From the IMG/VR virus record IMGVR_UViG_3300030451_004287, positions 95,660 to 159,659 of that record: a stretch of 64,000 nt of DNA; one strand, written 5' to 3'. The notes beneath the pieces were generated by a model. That model saw nothing but the letters and a program-made list of their open reading frames with translations, was not told where the DNA came from and ran no database searches. Of the stretch, positions 3,266-13,879 are shown piece by piece. Every line of letters starts with the position of its first letter. The stretch's first letter is position 1. The position numbers and the translations under genes are program-made. Origin of the DNA: a virus.

Positions 3266-4726
3266 ATGAAACTTTCAGACAGTGCTGCCGAACGAGCAAT
3301 CTTGTCAGGTATCTTTAATTATGGTGAAGATGCGTACTTTGACATTTGTGATCTCATACAAGAACAATCTTTTACTATAGATAGTAATATCTATATTTAC
3401 AAATGTTTTAAGCACATTTTTACCAATCATCAAAATCCTAAAATAGATTTAGCCTTAATATTTTCAGCGGCAGAAGAACTTTCTCTTTCTAAAATACTAA
3501 CTAAGAAAGATGAAGTACAACACATTAATGCGATAATTAACTTTCCTGTAGATAAAGATAATCTACGAAAGTTTGCTGCAAAGATAAAGAAATTAGAAAT
3601 AGCTAGACTGTTGCAACAGCAGTTGGAAGAAGCTAAAAACAAAGTTGTTAAAATTAGTGGTAATGAATCTGTTGGTAATATTGTAGGTATTGCTGAAGAT
3701 ATTATATTTAATTTTACATCAATGTTGAATGATGGTGAGGATGCGCCTGCTACGCTAGGTTCAGAAATTGATTCTTATCTAGAAGATATTATTAATAATC
3801 CTATAGATCAAATTGGAATACCAACAGGGTTTCCAGTGTATGATAAAGCTATCGGTGGAGGATTAAGAAAGAATACCGTAAACGTAATTGCCGCTAGACC
3901 TAAAACTGGAAAAACTCTTTTATCTGATAACATGAGTTTTAATATTGCTAACAACTGTGAAGTTCCTGTATTAAATATGGATACAGAAATGACAAGAGAA
4001 GACCATATACACAGAACCTTGGCTATGATGACAGATGTAGAGATCAATGAAATCGAAACTGGTCAATTCGCTAAGTCTCCATCTAAAAAAGAAAAGGTTA
4101 CAAAAGCAGCTAATAAACTAAAAAGCCTTAAAATTTTCCATAAATCTATAGCGGGTAAACCATTTGAAGATCAATTATCATTAATTCGTAGATGGTTAAT
4201 AAAAGATGTTGGATTAAATGAAGACGGAACAGCTAAAGATTGCGTGATATTTTATGACTACCTAAAACTTATGGATAGTCAAGGTGTAAGTCAAGACATG
4301 AAAGAATATCAAGTTCTTGGTTTTATGATGACCCAATTACACAACTTTGCTACAAAATATAAAGTACCAATCGTAGCTTTTGTTCAGTTGAACAGAGATG
4401 GTATTACTAAAGAAAGCACAGATACCGCTAGTGGTTCTGATAGAATTATTTGGTTATGTAGTAATTTTACTATATTTAAAAGAAAGTCTGATGAAGAAAT
4501 TGCTGAAGACGGACCAAATGCTGGTAACAGAAAACTCTTACCTGTAATTAGTAGACATGGTGGAGGTTTAGATGATAATGATTACATTAACTGTCACATG
4601 GAAGGACAGTTTGCAAAAATTAAAGAAGGTAAAACTAGATTAGAACTAATGAATAATATTAACTCAGACTCTGACATACAGGAGTATATTGGTGAAAACG
4701 ATGACCAAGAAATCCCATTCAACTGA
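3266..4726 (+). CDS. dnaB: Replicative DNA helicase (DnaB family)
   Basis: AERAILS N-domain, GIPTGF..YD..IGGG, ARPKTGKT, DTEM, FYDYLKLM, VQLNR, SGSDRI. Confidence 0.95.
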   Translation: MKLSDSAAERAILSGIFNYGEDAYFDICDLIQEQSFTIDSNIYIYKCFKHIFTNHQNPKIDLALIFSAAEELSLSKILTKKDEVQHINAIINFPVDKDNLRKFAAKIKKLEIARLLQQQLEEAKNKVVKISGNESVGNIVGIAEDIIFNFTSMLNDGEDAPATLGSEIDSYLEDIINNPIDQIGIPTGFPVYDKAIGGGLRKNTVNVIAARPKTGKTLLSDNMSFNIANNCEVPVLNMDTEMTREDHIHRTLAMMTDVEINEIETGQFAKSPSKKEKVTKAANKLKSLKIFHKSIAGKPFEDQLSLIRRWLIKDVGLNEDGTAKDCVIFYDYLKLMDSQGVSQDMKEYQVLGFMMTQLHNFATKYKVPIVAFVQLNRDGITKESTDTASGSDRIIWLCSNFTIFKRKSDEEIAEDGPNAGNRKLLPVISRHGGGLDDNDYINCHMEGQFAKIKEGKTRLELMNNINSDSDIQEYIGENDDQEIPFN

Positions 4727-5849
4727 TCAAAACAAACTTAAAGTTTTGTGTGATCTAATGTGTGATAATATTTTTGACTTATTAGATTACTTTGATATTG
4801 ACTATAAAGAAAATGGCAAGATGATTAGCATGCCATGTCCTATTCATGATGGAGATAATAAATCTGCACTTAATATATATCATGAGGGTGACAGCTATAG
4901 AGGTAATTGGAAATGTAGAACTCATGGTTGCGAAGAATGTTTTAAAGGATCTATCATAGGTTTTGTTAGAGGTGTTTTATCTAACAGAAAAAAGAACTGG
5001 ATAAAAAATGGAGATGATGTTGTATCATTTAAAGAAGCTTTAGATTTTTGCACCAAGTTTGTAAATAAAGATCTTGGTGATATCAAAATTTGTGAAGACA
5101 CTAAAAATAAAAAGAATTTTACTAATGTTATTAATAATATATCATCAGATAAACAAAACAATGTACCCACAATTAGTAGAAATAGTATTAGGTCATTACT
5201 AGAAATACCATCACAGTATTATATTAATAGGGGATATTCGACAGATATTTTAAATAAATACGATGTAGGTCTATGTAGTAGACCAAATAAAGAAATGTCG
5301 GGCAGGGTGGTAGTACCTATATACGATGCTAATTATAAAAGTATGATTGGATGTTCAGGTAGAAGTATTTATGATAAATGTAATAAATGCGGAGGGTTTC
5401 ACAATCCAGCAGATGCTTGTCCATCTTCTGAAAATTTGTGGAAATATTCTAAATGGAAACATAATTCTGGATTTAAAGCACAGGATCACCTGTATAACTT
5501 TTGGTTTGCTAAAGAGCATATGGCAAAATCGTCTTTTGCTATAATCTTAGAGAGTCCGGGTAATGTATGGAAGTTAGAAGAAAACGGTATACATAATAGT
5601 GTTGCTATTTTTGGAACAAATTTAAGCGCAAAACAAAAATTGTTATTAGATAGTTCTGGAGCTATGAGTCTTATTGTTATGATGGATAATGATGAAGCTG
5701 GTCATAAAGCAGCACAGGCTATTATAGAAAAATGTAATAGAACATATAATACATATTCTTTAACAGTTGAAAAAAATGATATTGGTGAAATGTCAAAAGA
5801 TGAAATACAAAATCAAATTGTTAATAAAATTAAGGAATTACCATTATGA
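4689..5849 (+). CDS. dnaG: DNA primase (DnaG-like; start may be GTG 4692 or ATG 4701)
   Basis: CPIH...WKCRTHGC Zn domain, GRVVVPI...GCSGR, LYN, Toprim ILESPGNV and MDNDEAG. Confidence 0.9.
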   Translation: MVKTMTKKSHSTDQNKLKVLCDLMCDNIFDLLDYFDIDYKENGKMISMPCPIHDGDNKSALNIYHEGDSYRGNWKCRTHGCEECFKGSIIGFVRGVLSNRKKNWIKNGDDVVSFKEALDFCTKFVNKDLGDIKICEDTKNKKNFTNVINNISSDKQNNVPTISRNSIRSLLEIPSQYYINRGYSTDILNKYDVGLCSRPNKEMSGRVVVPIYDANYKSMIGCSGRSIYDKCNKCGGFHNPADACPSSENLWKYSKWKHNSGFKAQDHLYNFWFAKEHMAKSSFAIILESPGNVWKLEENGIHNSVAIFGTNLSAKQKLLLDSSGAMSLIVMMDNDEAGHKAAQAIIEKCNRTYNTYSLTVEKNDIGEMSKDEIQNQIVNKIKELPL

Positions 5850-6436
5850 TAATAGCATTTGCAGGAAGAAAGCAGTCTGGTAAAGATACATCAGCAGAGT
5901 TTGTGTGCAAATTGTTTGAAACTAGCTTACAAGGCTCGTGTCGTATTTATCACTTTGCTGATCCTCTCAAAAAAAATATATGCATGGATGTTTTAGGTTT
6001 AACATATCATCAATGTTATGGATCTGACGAATCTAAAAATGAATTAGTAGATTGTTGCTGGCCAGATACAAATGAAAAAATGACAGCAAGAGAAGTTATG
6101 CAATATGTTGGGACTGATATTTTCAGAAAAATGCAACACAATGTATGGGCTAGTGCTACTATTAATAAAATTAAGAACGATAATTTTGATCTATCACTAA
6201 TAGCAGATTGTCGTTTTCCAAACGAAGTTGAGGCTGTCAAACAAGCTGGAGGCTTAGTAATTAAATTAAATAGAAATAACTATCACTCTACACATTCTAG
6301 TGAGACAGCATTGGATTCCGCCAACTACGATCAGTCGTGTTTTGATTTGGTTGTTGATAATATAGATTTAACATTAACACAAAAAAATCAAGTCATTTAC
6401 GATTTTTTACAGAATAAGGGAATATTACCATCATAA
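5846..6436 (+). CDS. Deoxynucleoside monophosphate kinase (T4 gp1-like)
   Basis: IIAFAGRKQSGKDT, FADPLK, REVMQYVGTDIFR, DCRFPNE, HSSE. Confidence 0.9.
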   Translation: MIIAFAGRKQSGKDTSAEFVCKLFETSLQGSCRIYHFADPLKKNICMDVLGLTYHQCYGSDESKNELVDCCWPDTNEKMTAREVMQYVGTDIFRKMQHNVWASATINKIKNDNFDLSLIADCRFPNEVEAVKQAGGLVIKLNRNNYHSTHSSETALDSANYDQSCFDLVVDNIDLTLTQKNQVIYDFLQNKGILPS

Positions 6437-7461
6437 TTACATACTTTCGTAGCTCATCATATAATACGCATAATATGTGTGAGCAACAATACTTTTTTGA
6501 TTATGTCTTAGGCTATAAACAGCCATCAAACAAAAAAGCAGATAAAGGAACGATTGTTCACAAAGCTTTAGAAATTTTAGCTTTTATTAAGTATACTGAA
6601 CAACAAGATAAAAAAACGTTTATAGATGATATTATTGGTGAAGTTAATATCAATAATTATAATTTAGATAATATTATTAAACAGGTTTATGACTTTTATT
6701 CAAGTAATTTTACACATCATGAATGGAAACCAATAGATTTTAAAGATTGTTATAAATGGACATACAAAGCTATTAATTATGCTAATGGTATGTTTGATCC
6801 GAGAAATAGAAACATACTATATCCTGAACAAAGATTTGATATAACTATAGATAAACCTTGGGCAAAATATGATTATGGAGATTTAAAAGGTGAACTTGCT
6901 ATTAAAGGCACTATAGATTTAATCACTAGACCTAGCGAAGACACATTAGAAATTATTGATTGGAAAACTGGTCGTAGATTAGATTGGGCCACAGGACAAG
7001 AGAAAACACAGGAGAAATTAGAAAAAGATCCACAGCTTATGATCTATTTCTACGCAGCTAAAAAACTATATCCAGAAATTAAAAATTGTATAGTTACAAT
7101 ATTCTTTATTAATGATGGTGGTCCTTTTAGCGTAAGTTTTCATAATAATGATTTATTAGCCACAGAAGATTTATTAAGAGAAAAATTTAATAGAATAAAA
7201 CAATGTAAGTTACCTAGACTAAGCAAAAGTTGGAAATGCACTAAATTGTGTATGTACGGTAAAAAAACTTTTGAAGATACACATATACCAGTAATTACGG
7301 AATATAGAGATAATCAAATCTGTAATGTTGGAGAGTCAATGACTATGTGCGAACAAGTTAAACACGATATCCAACTAAAAGGCATGAAGGAAGTGGTTGA
7401 CGAATACACAGTTCCCGGTTATAATGTAGGACATTACAAAGCACCCGGAAGTACGGAATGA
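6433..7461 (+). CDS. PD-(D/E)XK exonuclease, AddB/RecB/Cas4-like (first ATG 6475; probable non-AUG start near 6424-6436)
   Basis: SSSYN...C...Y N-motif, GTIVHKALE, EQRF, GTIDL, IIDWKTG, QLMIY, C-terminal Cys cluster. Confidence 0.85.
   Translation: MITYFRSSSYNTHNMCEQQYFFDYVLGYKQPSNKKADKGTIVHKALEILAFIKYTEQQDKKTFIDDIIGEVNINNYNLDNIIKQVYDFYSSNFTHHEWKPIDFKDCYKWTYKAINYANGMFDPRNRNILYPEQRFDITIDKPWAKYDYGDLKGELAIKGTIDLITRPSEDTLEIIDWKTGRRLDWATGQEKTQEKLEKDPQLMIYFYAAKKLYPEIKNCIVTIFFINDGGPFSVSFHNNDLLATEDLLREKFNRIKQCKLPRLSKSWKCTKLCMYGKKTFEDTHIPVITEYRDNQICNVGESMTMCEQVKHDIQLKGMKEVVDEYTVPGYNVGHYKAPGSTE
7397..7425 (+). promoter_or_regulatory. sigma70-type promoter inside the exonuclease 3' end, upstream of dnaE-N
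   Basis: TTGACG-17 nt-TATAAT, ending 32 nt before the dnaE-N ATG. Confidence 0.65.
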
Positions 7462-9314
7462 AGAAATATATACCTTTGCATGTGCATACGCACTACTCTT
7501 TGTTAGATGGTCTCAGTAAACCTATAGATATTGCTAATAGATGTGAAAAAATAGGCGTTCCTAGTTGCGCTATCACAGATCATGGCAATATATCTGGATG
7601 TATTCAGTTCTATTCGACAATGAAAAGTCGTGGAATCAAACCGATACTAGGTACAGAATTATATCTATGCGACCAATCACCAGAGGTCAAAGATAATTCT
7701 AATAAAAAACTTTCTCATATAGTTCTGCTTGCTAAAAATTTGCAAGGATGGAAAGATCTAATCAATATAGTCTCTGCTTCAAATAAACCAGAACACTATT
7801 ATTACAAACCTAGACTTGATCTTAATAGTTTATATGAATTAGTAAATGGAAATATTATATGTTTGTGTGGACATCCCGGATCTTACTTAGCTAATCAAAT
7901 TTATTCAGAGGGTAAGTTCGTAGACGATAAAACTATTGAGTCTAAAATAAAAGAATTACAAGATGTGTTTGGACAAGATAATACTTTTGTAGAAATACAA
8001 ACAATGGATCAAACAAATGAGTATCAACAAAACATAGGATTGAAATTAAGAGACTTTTGTAAATCTAGACACATTAAAACCGTAGCTAGTTTAGACGCTC
8101 ATTACTGCGAATCTGAGGATAGTGCTGATCAAAGAATTTTATTATGTAGTAATCTTAAACTAACACTACCCCAAGTAGCATCAAAAATAACTAATGACGA
8201 AGAGTTTGGATTAAGTAGTTTTTTTAAGTCTGATCAATATCATATTCTATCTCATGAAGAAATCAACGCTGTAAATACAGAGGAAGAAATAGAAAACACT
8301 AACGTTATAAACGAAATGTGTGAAGAATATGAAATACTTAACAAACCTATTTTACCTAACTTTAATTGTCCAGAAGGATTTGCACCAGATGAATATTTAA
8401 GACAATTATGTAGAGATGGCTGGAAAGATAAAATACAAGATAGTATACCAAAAGAAAATCATGGCGAATATGTAGATAGAGTAAAGTATGAACTAGATGT
8501 TTTACAGTCGGCTAACCTATCTAGTTATTTTTTAATTGTTCAAGATATTGTGAACTATCTTCATAAGAAAGATTGGTTACCGGGTCCGGGTAGAGGTAGT
8601 GCTGCTGGTTGTTTAGTATCATACTTAATCGGCATAACTTCAATCGACCCTATTAAATACAATCTAATTTTTGAAAGATTCTATAATGCAGGGCGAAATA
8701 CTAAGGATAGAATTTCTATGCCTGATATTGATGTAGACGTACCAATCAATCATAGAGAAGAAATTATTAATTATATTAAAGATACTTACGGATCTAACAA
8801 AGTATCTCAAATGATTACATATAATACACTAAAAGGTAGAGGCGCACTGAAAGAAGTATTGAGAGTATATGGTAATATATCTTTTGAAGAAATGAATCAG
8901 ATTACTAAATGCTTACCTGATGAAGCTAAGATCGCTGATGAACTTCAAGAAATGAAAGATGAAAATGGAGAAGCGTCAATTATCCAATGGGCATTGGAAA
9001 ATAATTCTAAAAAGTTAAAAGATTGGTGTTATCTTAAAGATGATAAATTAGAAGGGCCTCTTGCCAAACGTTTTGAACAAGCTATTAGATTAGAAGGAAC
9101 TAAATACAATCAATCTAAACATGCTGCTGGAATTGCTATATCTAGACATGATCTGTCAACAGTATGTCCTATGATTTATGATACTAAAACAAAACAAAAT
9201 ATTGCTGGATTAGAAATGAATGATTTGGAATCATTAGGCATTGTAAAATTTGATATTCTTGGTATTGCTTTACTAGATAAAATGATGCAAATTAAACAAT
9301 ATCTGAAAGGTTAA
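7458..9314 (+). CDS. dnaE: DNA polymerase III alpha, N-terminal part (PHP + palm/thumb)
   Basis: LHVHTHYSLLDG, TDHG, YYKPR, DAHY, GPGRGSAAG, FERF, PDIDVD, HAAG, KFDILG; the gene ends shortly after the third catalytic Asp. Confidence 0.95.
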   Translation: MKKYIPLHVHTHYSLLDGLSKPIDIANRCEKIGVPSCAITDHGNISGCIQFYSTMKSRGIKPILGTELYLCDQSPEVKDNSNKKLSHIVLLAKNLQGWKDLINIVSASNKPEHYYYKPRLDLNSLYELVNGNIICLCGHPGSYLANQIYSEGKFVDDKTIESKIKELQDVFGQDNTFVEIQTMDQTNEYQQNIGLKLRDFCKSRHIKTVASLDAHYCESEDSADQRILLCSNLKLTLPQVASKITNDEEFGLSSFFKSDQYHILSHEEINAVNTEEEIENTNVINEMCEEYEILNKPILPNFNCPEGFAPDEYLRQLCRDGWKDKIQDSIPKENHGEYVDRVKYELDVLQSANLSSYFLIVQDIVNYLHKKDWLPGPGRGSAAGCLVSYLIGITSIDPIKYNLIFERFYNAGRNTKDRISMPDIDVDVPINHREEIINYIKDTYGSNKVSQMITYNTLKGRGALKEVLRVYGNISFEEMNQITKCLPDEAKIADELQEMKDENGEASIIQWALENNSKKLKDWCYLKDDKLEGPLAKRFEQAIRLEGTKYNQSKHAAGIAISRHDLSTVCPMIYDTKTKQNIAGLEMNDLESLGIVKFDILGIALLDKMMQIKQYLKG

Positions 9315-9317
9315 ATT

Positions 9318-9506
9318 ATGGTACAGTTTTATGTTATGCCTGAAGGCGATCCGTTTACCTTTAATGGTAAAAGATACAAGAAGATAAAAGAGGAAAGAGT
9401 TAGTTGTTGTAAAATTAAACATAATGCTTTAGACATTGATACTAATGAAAAGATAGCTATACAGCCTAAACAAGAAGTTACACCGGTGAGAAGTCATGAC
9501 GAATAA
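9318..9506 (+). CDS. Small hypothetical protein (CC motif) between the dnaE halves
   Basis: 62 aa; fills the gap exactly and overlaps the next start. Confidence 0.7.
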   Translation: MVQFYVMPEGDPFTFNGKRYKKIKEERVSCCKIKHNALDIDTNEKIAIQPKQEVTPVRSHDE

Positions 9507-10206
9507 TAAAATTTGTGTTTTTGATTTTGAGACTGACGGTTCTGATCCAACAGAATGCAGTCCTGTTCAATTATCTTCAGTTATAGTAGATCCTATTAAG
9601 TTAGAAATAGTAAAAGATTCAGAATTTAATATTTACTTAAAGCCAGAAAAGCTATGCAAGGCTAAGGCTGTATCTATAAATAATCACCCGTATATGGATT
9701 CTGATATATTAGAATGGCACGGTAAGGTAAAAGGTGTAGATAAAGCCGAAATATTGGAGAGTTGGCTAACCTACCCGGATGCAAAACATTCTTGGAAACA
9801 ATTTATGGAGTATCTAGAGTCTTACCATCTGTTTAGAAGCGGCGGTAAAAAGACAAAGTTTTCTGCGCCTATAGCTTCAGGTTATAATATAATTAGTTTT
9901 GATATGAAGATTGTAGATCGCTTTGCCAAAAAATACGGAGGGTACGATAAAAAAGAAAAAGGTAATTCTATATTTCATCCTAGAGACAAAATTGATATCA
10001 TGAGTCTTGTATATATTTGGTTTAGATATATACCAGAAATTAAATCAATATCATTGGATAATATTAGAAACTATTTAGGTATTGACGCAACTAATGCTCA
10101 CGATGCCGTTAAAGATGTAACTGACTGTGCAGAAATACTTATCAGATTTTTGAAACTTCATAAAAATTTTGTTAGTAAGATAAAGTTTAAAGACTCATTT
10201 AAATGA
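9496..10206 (+). CDS. dnaQ: DEDDh 3'-5' exonuclease (DnaQ/epsilon-like)
   Basis: VFDFETDG (ExoI), GYNIISFD (ExoII), AHDAVKDV (ExoIII). Confidence 0.88.
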   Translation: MTNNKICVFDFETDGSDPTECSPVQLSSVIVDPIKLEIVKDSEFNIYLKPEKLCKAKAVSINNHPYMDSDILEWHGKVKGVDKAEILESWLTYPDAKHSWKQFMEYLESYHLFRSGGKKTKFSAPIASGYNIISFDMKIVDRFAKKYGGYDKKEKGNSIFHPRDKIDIMSLVYIWFRYIPEIKSISLDNIRNYLGIDATNAHDAVKDVTDCAEILIRFLKLHKNFVSKIKFKDSFK

Positions 10207-11795
10207 AAAAAATAAAATTTAAATCTTGTGGTTGTGTTTTCCCATCTCACAACAATCATATAGAATATAACATTGACATATCAAATCTAGATTTAGAATG
10301 TAAATCTACATGGGATATCATAGGTAGTGGTAATACTAAAGGATGTTTCCAGCTAGAGTCTAGATTAGGGCAAATGATGTCCAAAAAACTCAAGCCAGAA
10401 AACATAGAACAGTTAGCAGCTTTAATTAGTATTATGCGTCCCGGCTGTTTGGAGGCGTACAGAGATGGTAAAAGCGTTAGTGATCACTACATAGACAAAA
10501 AAAATGGTATTGAATCTATAGATTATTTTCACCCATCTCTAGAACCTGTATTAAAAACAACCTATGGAGAAATGATTTATCAAGAACAGGCGATGGAAAT
10601 AGCAAAAGTTATTGCTGGTTTTGGATTAGAAGAAGCGGATGTTCTTAGAAAAGCTATTGGTAAGAAAAAAGTAGATCTTATGAATAGCGTTAAAAAATCT
10701 TTTATACTAGGAGCACAAAAAACTAATGTAGTTTCTAAAGAAATCGCTGAAGAAATATTTGGATGGATCGAAAAAAGTCAAAGATATAGTTTTAATAAAT
10801 CTCATGCTATTAGTTATGCCTTGAATGCATACTTATCAGCATACTCTAAAGCACATTTTCCTGCTCATTTTTTTGCGTCTTATTTAAAGTTTGCGCAAGA
10901 CAAGATTGATCCAATGAAAGAGATTTATGAACTTATAAATAATTGCAGAGAAATGGATATTGATGTATACAAACCAGATTTTAGAAAGCTCTCAAGATCT
11001 TTTACTATAGATGATGATAAGAATATATATTTCGGTTTAACAAATATTAAAGGTGTTGGAGAATCAGTATGTAACAAAATAGAAATTTTAGTGAAAGATA
11101 TGGACTTGGAAAATATGTCATATCTAGAAACACTATTTAAAATTTTAGATAAAATCAATCAAACCGCTAGTAAAGCTATGATTAGTGTGGGTTGTTTTGA
11201 TTATTTAAATGTTGGTAGAAGAGAGATGTTATTTCATTTTAGTCTTATAAATGATCTGACAAAAAAAGAAAAAGATACTATATCAGCAAATCTTGAGTCA
11301 TTAGCTTCTTTAGAAGATTGTTTACATTTCCTTGACGATAAAGTAAACATAAGAAGAAAACAAAAAGTATTAGCTGTATTACATACTCTTAAAAATCCTC
11401 CATATAAACTTGAAGACAGTTGTCTGTGGATAGCAGATCAAGAAAATCAACTACTGGGCATAAGTATTACATGCTCAAAAATAGATGAATACAGTTTAGA
11501 AAATGTTAACTCAACATGTAGAGATTTAAATAATGATAAATGTATTTATAAGAATATTATTCTAGGAATAGAAATTAAAGAAGTTAATGTAATTAAAACA
11601 AAACGCGGAGCAAATCCGGGTCAAGAAATGTGTTTTGCTAAAGTGTCAGATAATACTGGAGGCGTAGATATTGTTGTATTTCCAGAACAATACGCTAAAT
11701 ATAAAGACGTACTACAAACTGACACAACAGCTATCCTAAGCCTAGAAAAATCTAAAAATGACAGTCTTATAGTTAAAAAAATTTGGCAGTTATAA
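10203..11795 (+). CDS. dnaE: DNA polymerase III alpha, C-terminal part (fingers, HhH, OB)
   Basis: GCFQLES, RPG, TYGEMIYQEQ, ADVLRKAIGKK, YSFNKSHA.SY, FGLTNIKGVG, OB-fold MCFAKVSDNTG..DIVVFP. Confidence 0.95.
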   Translation: MKKIKFKSCGCVFPSHNNHIEYNIDISNLDLECKSTWDIIGSGNTKGCFQLESRLGQMMSKKLKPENIEQLAALISIMRPGCLEAYRDGKSVSDHYIDKKNGIESIDYFHPSLEPVLKTTYGEMIYQEQAMEIAKVIAGFGLEEADVLRKAIGKKKVDLMNSVKKSFILGAQKTNVVSKEIAEEIFGWIEKSQRYSFNKSHAISYALNAYLSAYSKAHFPAHFFASYLKFAQDKIDPMKEIYELINNCREMDIDVYKPDFRKLSRSFTIDDDKNIYFGLTNIKGVGESVCNKIEILVKDMDLENMSYLETLFKILDKINQTASKAMISVGCFDYLNVGRREMLFHFSLINDLTKKEKDTISANLESLASLEDCLHFLDDKVNIRRKQKVLAVLHTLKNPPYKLEDSCLWIADQENQLLGISITCSKIDEYSLENVNSTCRDLNNDKCIYKNIILGIEIKEVNVIKTKRGANPGQEMCFAKVSDNTGGVDIVVFPEQYAKYKDVLQTDTTAILSLEKSKNDSLIVKKIWQL

Positions 11796-11796
11796 C

Positions 11797-11824
11797 TTGA
11801 CATATTGATAGCTAATTGTACTAT
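11797..11824 (+). promoter_or_regulatory. sigma70-like promoter for ssb and downstream genes
   Basis: Intergenic TTGACA-16 nt-TACTAT, followed by an AAGGAG RBS before ssb. Confidence 0.55.
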
Positions 11825-11870
11825 AGAAGGTATTGAAAACTATTCGTTTTGAACTTTAAAAGGAGATGAT

Positions 11871-12245
11871 ATGAATCTTATTGTATTAAAGGGTAATCTT
11901 GCTCGTGATCCAGACCTGCGATCAATCACCACAGGTAACAGGGATACTTCTGTTGTAAATTTTACGGTAGCTGTTTCTAGGGAATATAGGAAATCAGACG
12001 GTACTACTGATAAGAATACAACATTTGTAAATTGCGAAGCATGGGACAGTGGAGCAGAGGCTATTGCATCTACTTTTAAAAAGGGCGATCTAGTTATGCT
12101 AGAAGGTTCTTTGCGTAATGATAACTGGGAAAAAGATGGTGTTAAGCATTCATCTATGAAAGTTCGTGTCAGCAATTTTGGTAAAATTCAAAAAACTAAA
12201 AAGTCTTCCGCAAAGACAGAAGATGAAGCTGTAACAGCATTCTAG
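11871..12245 (+). CDS. ssb: Single-stranded DNA-binding protein
   Basis: MNLIVLKGNLARDPDLR, FTVAVSR, FVNCEAW, KKGDLVMLEGSLRNDNWEKDG; strong RBS. Confidence 0.95.
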   Translation: MNLIVLKGNLARDPDLRSITTGNRDTSVVNFTVAVSREYRKSDGTTDKNTTFVNCEAWDSGAEAIASTFKKGDLVMLEGSLRNDNWEKDGVKHSSMKVRVSNFGKIQKTKKSSAKTEDEAVTAF

Positions 12246-12253
12246 GATTTTAT

Positions 12254-13879
12254 ATGAAAAAAAGAATTATGATGCTAACCGAATCTGGGCATATTATGTC
12301 TGGATTCGGTAATTATACTAGAAATGTTCTTTCTAGATTACACAATACAGGGAAGTATGAAATAGCAGAACTGTCTTGTTATAGAGATAAAAACGTCCCT
12401 AAAACAGAGGCATGGAAGGTATACCCTAATGTTCCAACAGGTGAAGAATCTGAAAAAAAATATAGAGGTATTACATCATCAGTTTTTGGTGCTTGGGGTT
12501 TTGAAACCGCCTGTTTAGATTTTAAACCAGATATTGTATTTGATATTAGAGATTACTGGATGCTAAACTTTCCAGAGTATTCTCCGTTTAGGCCATTTTT
12601 CCATTGGGTATTAGCACCAACCATCGACTCTGCACCACAAAGAAAAGAATGGTTACAAACATATTCTAACGCTGATTTAGTTTCTGGTCATACTCAATGG
12701 GGTATTGATTACCTAAAACAATTTTCAAATATAAATACAACATTTCCAGTTAATGATTCTGTAGATGTAAATAATTTTAAGCCTGTGTCTATAGATAAAA
12801 AAGCTCACAAAGCTAATCATTTTTTAGATCCTAATGATTTTATTGTTGGTAGTGTTATGCGTAATCAAAAACGCAAATTAATTCCTAATCTTATTAAAGT
12901 TATTAAACAACTCAATAAGAAATATCCAAGAATTAAATTACATTTACACACTAGTTATCCAGACAACGCTGGATGGCCAATACCTGAACTAATGTTAGAG
13001 CATGATGCTGCCGATATAGTTTACTTTACTTACAAGTGTGCTCACTGTGGAAAATATTCTGTAATGAGTTTCAAGGAAGGACTTGCTATATGTCCACATT
13101 GTAAAAATCAATCAGCTAATATATGTAATGTATCTCAAGGTTTAAATGATAGTGAATTATGTTCAGTATATAATTTATTTGATACATATGTTCAGTATGC
13201 TATATGTGAAGGTTTTGGTATACCTCCTGTAGAAGCAGCAGCGTGTGGCTTGTCTTTGATTACTGTAGATCATGGTGCTATGCGAGAAATTGGAGATAAT
13301 CTTAACGGAAGAATTGTTAAGTTAGCATCAACATTTAGAGAATTAGAAACTAACGCTGAAAGAGTCAGTCCAGACGATGAAGATTTATATAATCAAATAG
13401 AACAGGAATATTTAAAACAAGAACAACAAAGTTGGCTACAGTCTTTAAAGTCTATAGAAGAAAACAGAAACACTCTGTTAGAAAACTACAGCTGGGATAA
13501 AACCGCTAAAGATTATGAAAAAATGTTTGATAACATTGAATTAACTGGATTGCAAGGCAAATGGGATTCTCCACCTCAACCAATTAGTGAGGATACCAAC
13601 GTAGACACACAAAATGTTCGAAGTAATAGGGAACTAATTGATAAAGTAGTTTGCGAAATTATTAAATCTCCATATTTATTACGAACTGCTATGGTACAAA
13701 CGGCAATTAGAAATTTAGATGCAGGATTTGTAAACGATGGCGGAACCATTAAACCTTATACCATGAAAGAAGCTAGTGGGTTTTTGGATCAATTATATAA
13801 CTCTAAAAAAACATGGGATGCTATTCGTACAGGCTCTATGGAATTACCTGATCAGTTTAAAGAAATTATAGAATACTAA
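12254..13879 (+). CDS. GT-B (GT4-like) glycosyltransferase with a Zn-ribbon insertion
   Basis: SGFG N-loop, VMRNQKRK, EGFGIPPVEAAACG, YSWDKTA; CAHC...CPHC insert. Confidence 0.88.
   Translation: MKKRIMMLTESGHIMSGFGNYTRNVLSRLHNTGKYEIAELSCYRDKNVPKTEAWKVYPNVPTGEESEKKYRGITSSVFGAWGFETACLDFKPDIVFDIRDYWMLNFPEYSPFRPFFHWVLAPTIDSAPQRKEWLQTYSNADLVSGHTQWGIDYLKQFSNINTTFPVNDSVDVNNFKPVSIDKKAHKANHFLDPNDFIVGSVMRNQKRKLIPNLIKVIKQLNKKYPRIKLHLHTSYPDNAGWPIPELMLEHDAADIVYFTYKCAHCGKYSVMSFKEGLAICPHCKNQSANICNVSQGLNDSELCSVYNLFDTYVQYAICEGFGIPPVEAAACGLSLITVDHGAMREIGDNLNGRIVKLASTFRELETNAERVSPDDEDLYNQIEQEYLKQEQQSWLQSLKSIEENRNTLLENYSWDKTAKDYEKMFDNIELTGLQGKWDSPPQPISEDTNVDTQNVRSNRELIDKVVCEIIKSPYLLRTAMVQTAIRNLDAGFVNDGGTIKPYTMKEASGFLDQLYNSKKTWDAIRTGSMELPDQFKEIIEY

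Follow-up and report, generated by a model that had tools for sequence, protein, structure and literature searches.

Pol III alpha, the DnaE polymerase, is the textbook single-chain bacterial replicase, and to our knowledge the only well-known natural DnaE encoded by two genes is the one rejoined by an intein. Whether a DnaE can also serve as two chains that are never joined is the question raised by 7458-11795 on the plus strand of a 64,000-nt stretch of virus record IMGVR_UViG_3300030451_004287 (positions 95,660 to 159,659; hereafter the window), where the list of open reading frames (ORFs) holds four closely packed plus-strand genes: an N-terminal half of dnaE (dnaE_N), a 62-aa ORF (orf62), a DEDDh 3'-5' exonuclease (exo) and a C-terminal half of dnaE (dnaE_C). 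The source genome, that of an uncultured marine phage, is the 159,659-bp record, with a CheckV completeness of 100%. A sequence-only reading of the window had taken the two dnaE genes for the chains of a non-covalent C-family replicase. We find that the split arrangement is real, conserved and widespread. Established here are the way the locus is built, the fact that splicing elements are absent, and the conservation of its genes under selection, and we consider it probable (about 0.8) that the phage replicative polymerase is a Pol III alpha made as two chains, which would reassemble non-covalently, with the gene of the proofreader in the gap between theirs.

Two adjacent genes that together make up a DnaE

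The ORFs, the Pfam matches and an end-to-end profile mapping agree that dnaE is encoded in the window as two genes with products of 618 and 530 aa. dnaE_N matches PHP (PF02811, 3.8e-38) and DNA_pol3_alpha (PF07733, 6.7e-72), and dnaE_C matches DNA_pol3_finger (PF17657, 9e-46) and HHH_6 (PF14579, 8.9e-10); its OB match (PF01336) lies under the cut-off at 23.6 bits, with the corresponding strands at residues 451-529 of the C-half model. This AlphaFold model of the C-half alone has a mean pLDDT of 88.5 and is confident except for the first 20 residues. In profile alignments the N-half and the C-half correspond to 41-615 and 618-1072 of phrog_405 and to 5-573 and 580-1050 of NCBIfam PRK05673, and they align to 5-562 and 582-1056 of E. 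coli alpha; together they cover the single-chain DnaE models from end to end, with no part missing. The break falls at about E. coli alpha 563-581 (about 570). Here a variable linker separates palm from fingers, and the Pfam match passes from the palm model to the finger model. The break leaves 12 residues at the N-half end and 21 at the C-half start unaligned to E. coli alpha.

As had been read from the sequence, dnaE_N contains PDIDVD and KFD and terminates 16 residues past KFDILG. Across 36 relatives the catalytic D423, D425 and D599 show little or no variation. The PHP metal ligands, also thought to be retained, are present in dnaE_N at nine of nine positions (H8, H10, D17, H42, E67, H87, H139, D213 and H215). 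The end of dnaE_C lies at about E. coli alpha residue 1060, indicating that it has no tau-binding domain. Among the features of the DnaE class, the PHP domain and three-Asp palm, as well as the fingers, HhH and OB domains, were all found, and the single polypeptide was not; by every domain and motif test, single chain excepted, the split dnaE thus classifies as a DnaE-type C-family (Pol III alpha) polymerase.

No device that could rejoin the halves was found, in agreement with the sequence-only reading, which had seen no intein features. The Hint/intein families of Pfam gave no match in either half at E<=0.01, and with 12 and 21 unaligned flanking residues there is no room for one, which rules out an intein at the break. 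Neither a split N-intein (about 100 aa, starting from Cys/Ser) nor a C-intein (about 35 aa, ending in HN and followed by C/S/T) is present, and relatives do not keep the HN that the window's C-half has. PF14890 serves as the positive control, being flagged in four one-piece relatives (P0156, P0157 and P0163, of 1394-1396 aa, and P0161, of 1289 aa), the inteins of which lie at C-half-equivalent residues ~82 (after RPG) and ~128, away from the break. The 888 nt between the dnaE halves are coding throughout, with a 3-nt gap between dnaE_N and orf62, an 11-nt overlap of orf62 and exo and an ATGA start/stop overlap of exo and dnaE_C, so the tight packing that had been noted holds at each junction. 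No homing endonuclease gene of the fractured-gene type is found in the gap, which holds exo and the SH3-like orf62. An Rfam search of 7000-12500 gave no intron at E<=1 and returned only two matches, to a snoRNA and a miRNA model, both at chance level; with no ribozyme family and a fully coding gap, a group I or II intron is ruled out.

The relation between the halves also differs from locus to locus. They lie 647-1067 nt apart, and the frame of one relative to the other may be 0, 1 or 2, which excludes a conserved read-through or bypass; N-half, orf62 and C-half stand in one frame in the window by chance, and this sharing is not conserved. At three loci (L003, L010 and L013) the gap is essentially the exo ORF alone.

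The sequence-only reading had left the split point and gene order to be checked in relatives, and both were found to be conserved. The best 120 N-half clusters (64-97% identity) are all 579-636 aa long, nearly all 610-636 aa, and contain PHP and palm domains only, while nearly all of the best 120 C-half clusters measure 507-546 aa. Marine (Tara) and other aquatic metagenomes are the source of many of the split DnaE clusters, the contigs being up to 225 kb long. The same replication module was found on 22 viral contigs. In 19 of the 19 contigs that extend past the N-half, exo is the next gene of the polymerase set, down to 48% identity, and the C-half follows exo wherever those contigs reach far enough; the order is the same in L037 and L038. 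The best matches among named isolates, from 50,697 phage records, are 29-35% identical and one-piece or intron-type.

Comparison with L001, L003 and L004 gave pN of 0.08-0.35 and pS of 0.68-0.75 for both halves and exo, ratios of this type being rough because dS is saturated, and orf62 gave a dN/dS of 0.08 against L001. By these comparisons all four genes are under strong purifying selection. dnaE_N is the one PF07733 match in the whole genome, and neither PolA nor PolB gave a match in the complete 159,659-bp genome. Selection, conservation and the lack of a second polymerase together make a decaying or idle gene very unlikely.

Features of the split dnaE locus and its replication module (window positions)
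Feature	Position	Strand	Remarks
Replication module, upstream part	3266-7461	+	DnaB to PD-(D/E)XK nuclease
DnaB helicase	3266-4726	+	Upstream replication module
Toprim primase	4689-5849	+	Upstream replication module
dNMP kinase	5846-6436	+	Upstream replication module
PD-(D/E)XK nuclease	6475-7461	+	3' end overlaps dnaE_N start
dnaE N-half (dnaE_N)	7458-9314	+	618 aa; PHP, palm, thumb
62-aa ORF (orf62)	9318-9506	+	Invariant CC (SCCK); SH3/KOW-like model
DEDDh 3'-5' exonuclease (exo)	9496-10206	+	236 aa; D10, E12, D136, H202, D207
dnaE C-half (dnaE_C)	10203-11795	+	530 aa; fingers, HhH (beta-binding-type) domain, OB fold
C-half N-terminal extension, ~21 residues	10203-10265	+	F-x-C-G-C-x-F; low-confidence beta hairpin
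SSB	11871-12245	+	Downstream end of replication module
GT1-family glycosyltransferase, ~540 aa (541 aa)	12254-13879		After SSB

A RecA-like protein gene also lies upstream of the split dnaE in the replication module. Promoter and terminator scans gave counts at chance level, with no terminator within the four-gene block. The glycosyltransferase directly after SSB, which has a weak zinc-ribbon-like insert, is conserved at this place in all relatives, split and one-piece, and opens a glycosyltransferase-rich region. In L004 (10939-13743), and also in L006, its homologue matches as one piece covering residues 1-320 and another covering 318-525, with about 1.2 kb between them, so that a second gene of the replication module is interrupted in that phage.

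The exonuclease, the small ORF and the C-half hairpin

The protein encoded between the halves was assigned as an exonuclease by its match to RNase_T (PF00929, 6e-8, 33.8 bits against a cut-off of 24) and to phrog_192, 'DNA polymerase exonuclease subunit' (4e-20). Motifs Exo I (DxE), Exo II (D) and Exo III (Hx4D) are all present, and D10, E12, D136, H202 and D207 are nearly invariant in 50 sequences, confirming the DEDDh type that the sequence-only reading had given it. Among PDB profiles it matched best to entries under the name 'exodeoxyribonuclease III' and to the exonuclease domain of PolC, and by these matches exo is only distantly DnaQ-like. The C-terminal residues 226-236 form a short KFKDSF-like tail, which is kept in all four clades of the family whatever the gene position and may be a docking peptide. 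The exo tree mirrors the DnaE tree, with the same four groups, each with its own exo gene position, as expected of a long-standing partner. In most loci exo and the C-half start share the ATGA start/stop overlap, and the junction is tight or near-tight in both split clades; the exo gene and its close coupling to the C-half start are the invariant features of the split loci. No fusion of exo with a DnaE half was found in the best 150 of 510 exo family clusters, those 150 being standalone proteins of about 100-280 aa.

A complex of exo and the N-half was predicted with both given as alignments. The ipSAE was 0.39 (runs 0.00, 0.58 and 0.39) and that of the best control 0.00, on a scale where 58 of the 80 solved complexes pass the mark, as do 2 of the 110 mismatched pairs, and where 0.60 or under holds only 7 of the 80 solved complexes plus both passing mismatches. 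The runs shared at least 0% of their contacts, with a partner pLDDT of at least 79. The prediction gives weak support to a binding of exo to the N-half, and the pass may reflect memory because alpha-epsilon complexes have already been solved.

With the PHP ligands complete and all DEDDh residues present, two editing activities are possible in the source phage, as had been suggested, and on these residues dual editing is plausible there. The suggestion does not extend to the family, as most PHP ligands have disappeared from the L037 lineage and from P0185: in L037 (2254-4125) and P0185 five or six of the nine are gone. L037 is also without the C-half hairpin described below.

orf62 encodes a protein with an invariant CC, the model of which is a confident small all-beta SH3/KOW-like barrel; its fold matches are weak (EF-P/eIF5A domain I, E>=7e-3). 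The predicted barrel is not of the helical theta type, which speaks against orf62 as a theta-like subunit. orf62 is confined to the clade of the window's split form. Its slot holds nothing in L003, L010 and L013 and unrelated ORFs elsewhere: L018 (3500-3877) and L017 have a SET-domain ORF (PF00856, 2.5e-6), and L007 (7860-8039) and L019 a 60-aa CxxC...CxxC zinc-ribbon-like ORF, under Pfam cut-offs. The slot between dnaE_N and exo is thus a hot spot of variable small genes.

The sequence-only reading had also pointed to a new N-terminal CGC motif on the C-half. Split C-halves start with F-x-C-G/S-C-x-F and have a further conserved Cys about 22 residues on (residue 33 in the window), and one-piece relatives are without this N-terminal segment. 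The motif is present in 91 of the best 120 C-half clusters and absent in 29, so it stands as a feature of many split forms and fails as a universal one. One hairpin-less C-half, P0321 (L037), has in-frame stops directly upstream of its start, in the arrangement N-half, small ORF, exo, C-half. The 29 hairpin-less clusters, which are nonetheless split, indicate that the CxC hairpin is common but dispensable, and they rule it out as an obligatory clasp. In the C-half model, residues 1-20 are folded with low confidence (pLDDT ~50) into a hairpin whose turn contains CGC, which would suit an element ordered only on docking. A conserved fourth metal ligand for the hairpin was sought and none was found. 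The CGC and CC motifs, suggested to hold the polymerase together, are not required for it, given that the hairpin is dispensable and orf62 is missing or replaced at other loci. Of the inserted proteins as glue, orf62 is likewise not required, occurring in one clade only, and exo keeps the weak support of the fold prediction.

In five of five clade-2 loci (L007, L010, L013, L018 and L020) the offset of CxC from the start Met equals that of HxH in the PHP domain of the N-half (residues 7-9; 6-8 in L020; window regions compared, 7458-7487 and 10203-10235). Apart from this offset, the N-terminus of the C-half resembles that of DnaE only weakly in sequence. The shared offset could be chance or a trace of an exo-dnaE duplication, and we offer it as an idea, not as evidence. 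In P0151 and P0153, of the one-piece clade sister to that of the window, the linker at residues ~600-625 is 8-10 residues longer than in the other one-piece clade and contains RRGCDEF...FNC, which may be a hairpin remnant of a re-fusion.

One-piece relatives and the history of the split

A search for longer proteins revealed one-piece DnaE relatives (P0151-P0185) of 1102-1152 aa with 44-57% identity to the N-half, in which the equivalents of the two halves join via only ~5 linker residues. The sequence-only reading had named uninterrupted relatives, together with a spliced intron, as what would speak against a split enzyme; such relatives do exist, and nothing points to a spliced intron. Their neighbourhoods are syntenic with that of the window (PD-(D/E)XK, dnaE, SSB, glycosyltransferase), and each one-piece locus has an orthologous exo at 28-37% identity. 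This exo lies directly upstream of dnaE in L032 and L036, further upstream in L035, and downstream of dnaE, beyond SSB and the glycosyltransferase, in L030, L033 and L034.

The DnaE tree contains four well-supported lineages, two split and two whole, and the window's split clade joins a whole clade with an SH-aLRT of 88. Constraining all split forms to one clade, a group chosen after the tree was seen, changed the log-likelihood by -21.7 units (approximately unbiased (AU) test, p = 0.012), and on this tree the split forms are not one clade. Both split clades have the break at the same alignment column and share the derived N-terminal segment of the C-half. Three histories fit these data: a single origin followed by one re-fusion, which a basal polytomy permits; two parallel insertions; or an exchange between phages by recombination.

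A more elaborate reading joins these observations into a recurrent or reversible split of the phage Pol III core, in which exo entered dnaE at one permissive linker, the split was gained twice or re-fused once, and a metal-dependent CxC clasp came to hold the chains. The entry of exo would possibly have gone through an exo-dnaE tandem duplication with complementary deletions; the CxC hairpin would derive, by remodelling, from a copy of the N-terminus of DnaE, HxH dyad included; the hairpin and the downstream Cys would dock the fingers chain onto the palm chain; and an alphaN-epsilon-alphaC core would result, its assembly order set by gene order. We regard this combination as doubtful.

Proposed assembly of the polymerase and comparison with known systems

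Given that the aspartates are on the N-half and the fingers on the C-half, one active site needs both chains, which makes non-covalent assembly the best reading of the locus. In the proposed mechanism, chain N would contribute the PHP domain, the thumb and the palm, where all three catalytic aspartates lie. Chain C would bring the fingers, to position dNTP and template, along with a duplex-binding HhH domain and an OB fold, so that neither chain alone would be able to polymerise. As the break is in a variable linker, the fold would close like that of a one-piece DnaE. The DEDDh exo would be the regular accessory proofreader of the family, being an ortholog of the exo beside one-piece dnaE, and its position and ATGA coupling to the C-half would most likely lead to a co-ordinated, roughly equimolar output of the three proteins. 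The two-chain replicase of the sequence-only reading is consistent with the lack of splicing, the selection and the sole polymerase; chain assembly, activity and the physical attachment of exo are what we infer. Several findings weigh against it. No beta clamp or clamp loader match was found in the genome, for a DnaE that is itself without a tau-binding domain; the one-piece relatives at 44-57% identity indicate that an unsplit DnaE suffices in this phage group; and the exo/N-half prediction is weak, with runs that have no contacts in common.

Among the alternatives, the nearest to our reading is an obligate three-part core in which the halves would not stay together unaided and exo, with or without the CxC hairpin or orf62, would act as a clasp bridging the N and C chains. 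It would explain why the exo gene sits exactly in the break, with an ATGA overlap or a similarly close junction to the C-half in both split clades, and why the hairpin occurs in split forms only and has low order in the isolated C-half model; the exo/N-half contact prediction (0.39 against 0.00 for the control, with the caveat of memory) points the same way. Nevertheless, C-halves without a hairpin are still split, the small ORF is absent or replaced at many loci, the same exo family serves one-piece DnaE from other gene positions, and exo and DnaE were never found fused in the best 150 of the 510 exo clusters, which together make an obligate clasp improbable. A different objection is that the pieces are not one polymerase at all, either because they are decaying remnants in a phage replicated by a host enzyme or because the halves have separate roles. 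The lack of a detectable phage clamp or clamp loader would agree with this, and from the one-piece relatives it is clear that the group as a whole does not descend from a split form; but strong purifying selection, catalytic and dNTP-side motifs that are invariant across 48-97% identity, the position of the genes within a complete conserved replication module (DnaB, primase, SSB, exo) and the absence of any other detected polymerase leave it very little room.

Least probable of all, to the point that we hardly consider it, is a rejoining of the halves as one chain or one mRNA, whether by a degenerate intein, an intron with exo as its ORF or translational bypass. One-piece relatives exist, other phage dnaE genes have intron-like inserts, some with homing endonucleases, and split inteins flanking a gene are known in marine DnaE (PMC2677866). 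Against this, the halves contain no intein block and offer no place for one, the N-half running on for 12 residues after its alignment to E. coli alpha stops; no ribozyme was matched in a gap without a non-coding stretch, which at some loci is hardly more than exo; the frame relation of the halves varies; and the insert is an ordinary gene that evolves like its neighbours and is free-standing elsewhere in relatives. Rejoining by an unrecognised mechanism is largely refuted by the same evidence.

Assembly of two separate chains therefore remains our preferred account, and under it palm and fingers of the sole polymerase appear to work on separate chains in a large group of aquatic phages that is abundant in the environment. 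If this is true, a C-family active site can form across a protein interface, as for a family-B phage polymerase. The break would also mark a natural permissive split site for DnaE engineering. The one-piece relatives, with PHP sites intact or decayed, form a comparative series that could address what is gained from splitting, how an accessory gene comes to lie inside its partner gene, and the trade-off between PHP and DEDDh proofreading.

Compared with single-chain DnaE (E. coli, 2HNH and 5FKU; T. aquaticus, 2HPI; the one-piece P0151-P0185), the split form has the same domain order, catalytic D-D-D and PHP ligands, and differs in its two polypeptides, the exo gene in the break, the extra CxC hairpin and the lack of the tau-binding C-terminal domain. 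The E. coli Pol III core (alpha-epsilon-theta) likewise pairs a C-family polymerase with a separate DEDDh exonuclease, and orf62 invites a comparison with theta. However, the phage exo has a short tail and a weak binding prediction where epsilon has a long PHP-binding segment, and the PHP site is intact in the phage DnaE, unlike in E. coli.

The split DnaE of cyanobacteria (NCBIfam PRK09532 and PRK07373; Wu, Hu and Liu 1998, cited in PMC2677866) is likewise encoded by two genes. Its halves carry intein pieces, are trans-spliced and are encoded at separate loci, whereas the phage halves are intein-free neighbours, and its break lies further downstream, as the sequence-only reading had held, by ~175-200 residues, at C-half residue ~197. 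The 'fractured genes' of marine metagenomes, three DnaE loci included (Dassa et al. 2009, PMC2677866), are also marine and phage-like, and there too a replication gene is in two parts around a free-standing gene. Split inteins flank the break, and the gene between them encodes a homing endonuclease, in contrast to the polymerase's own accessory exo here, and the single intein-free case among them is SbcD-like, not DnaE (PMC2677866). Among phages, dnaE is also annotated in pieces in Bacillus phage vB_BceM_WH1 (gp235-237), Bacillus phage Jayan and Clostridium phage CS266P3, but these breaks are further upstream, at about residues 400-450, with 400-700-nt non-coding gaps or an HNH endonuclease (I-HmuI-like in CS266P3), and RNA splicing likely repairs them.

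Two-chain phage polymerases offer a precedent. The gp43A/gp43B polymerases of T4-related Aeromonas phages are also two-chain, non-covalent and intein-free. In PhiKZ, the family-B DNAP-N and DNAP-C form a stable 1:1 two-chain complex by cryo-EM (Basu et al. 2026 preprint, PMC13648687), and this intein-free non-covalent replicase is the best working model for the split DnaE, although it is of family B and not C, has another break point and no exo gene in the gap, and the assembly of the split DnaE is presumed. Group 2.2 jumbo phages have a split minimal Pol III alpha, predicted by comparative genomics (Iyer et al. 2021, PMC7824862), which is likewise an intein-free split of the C-family catalytic module. 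That stripped-down module is palm-only; a break within its nucleotidyltransferase domain yields two small proteins whose genes are distant from each other, and a family-B polymerase is present alongside, whereas the present DnaE is full-size, the sole polymerase found, and split at the palm/fingers boundary by adjacent genes.

Surveys of the C family mention only intein-split or frameshifted DnaE (PMC3919608, PMC12926913), and the full-text literature searched, with most subscription journals outside it, contained no description of an intein-free split DnaE with exo in the gap. Naturally split polymerases are already known, and what is new here is an intein-free split of DnaE with an exonuclease gene in the gap and with one-piece relatives.

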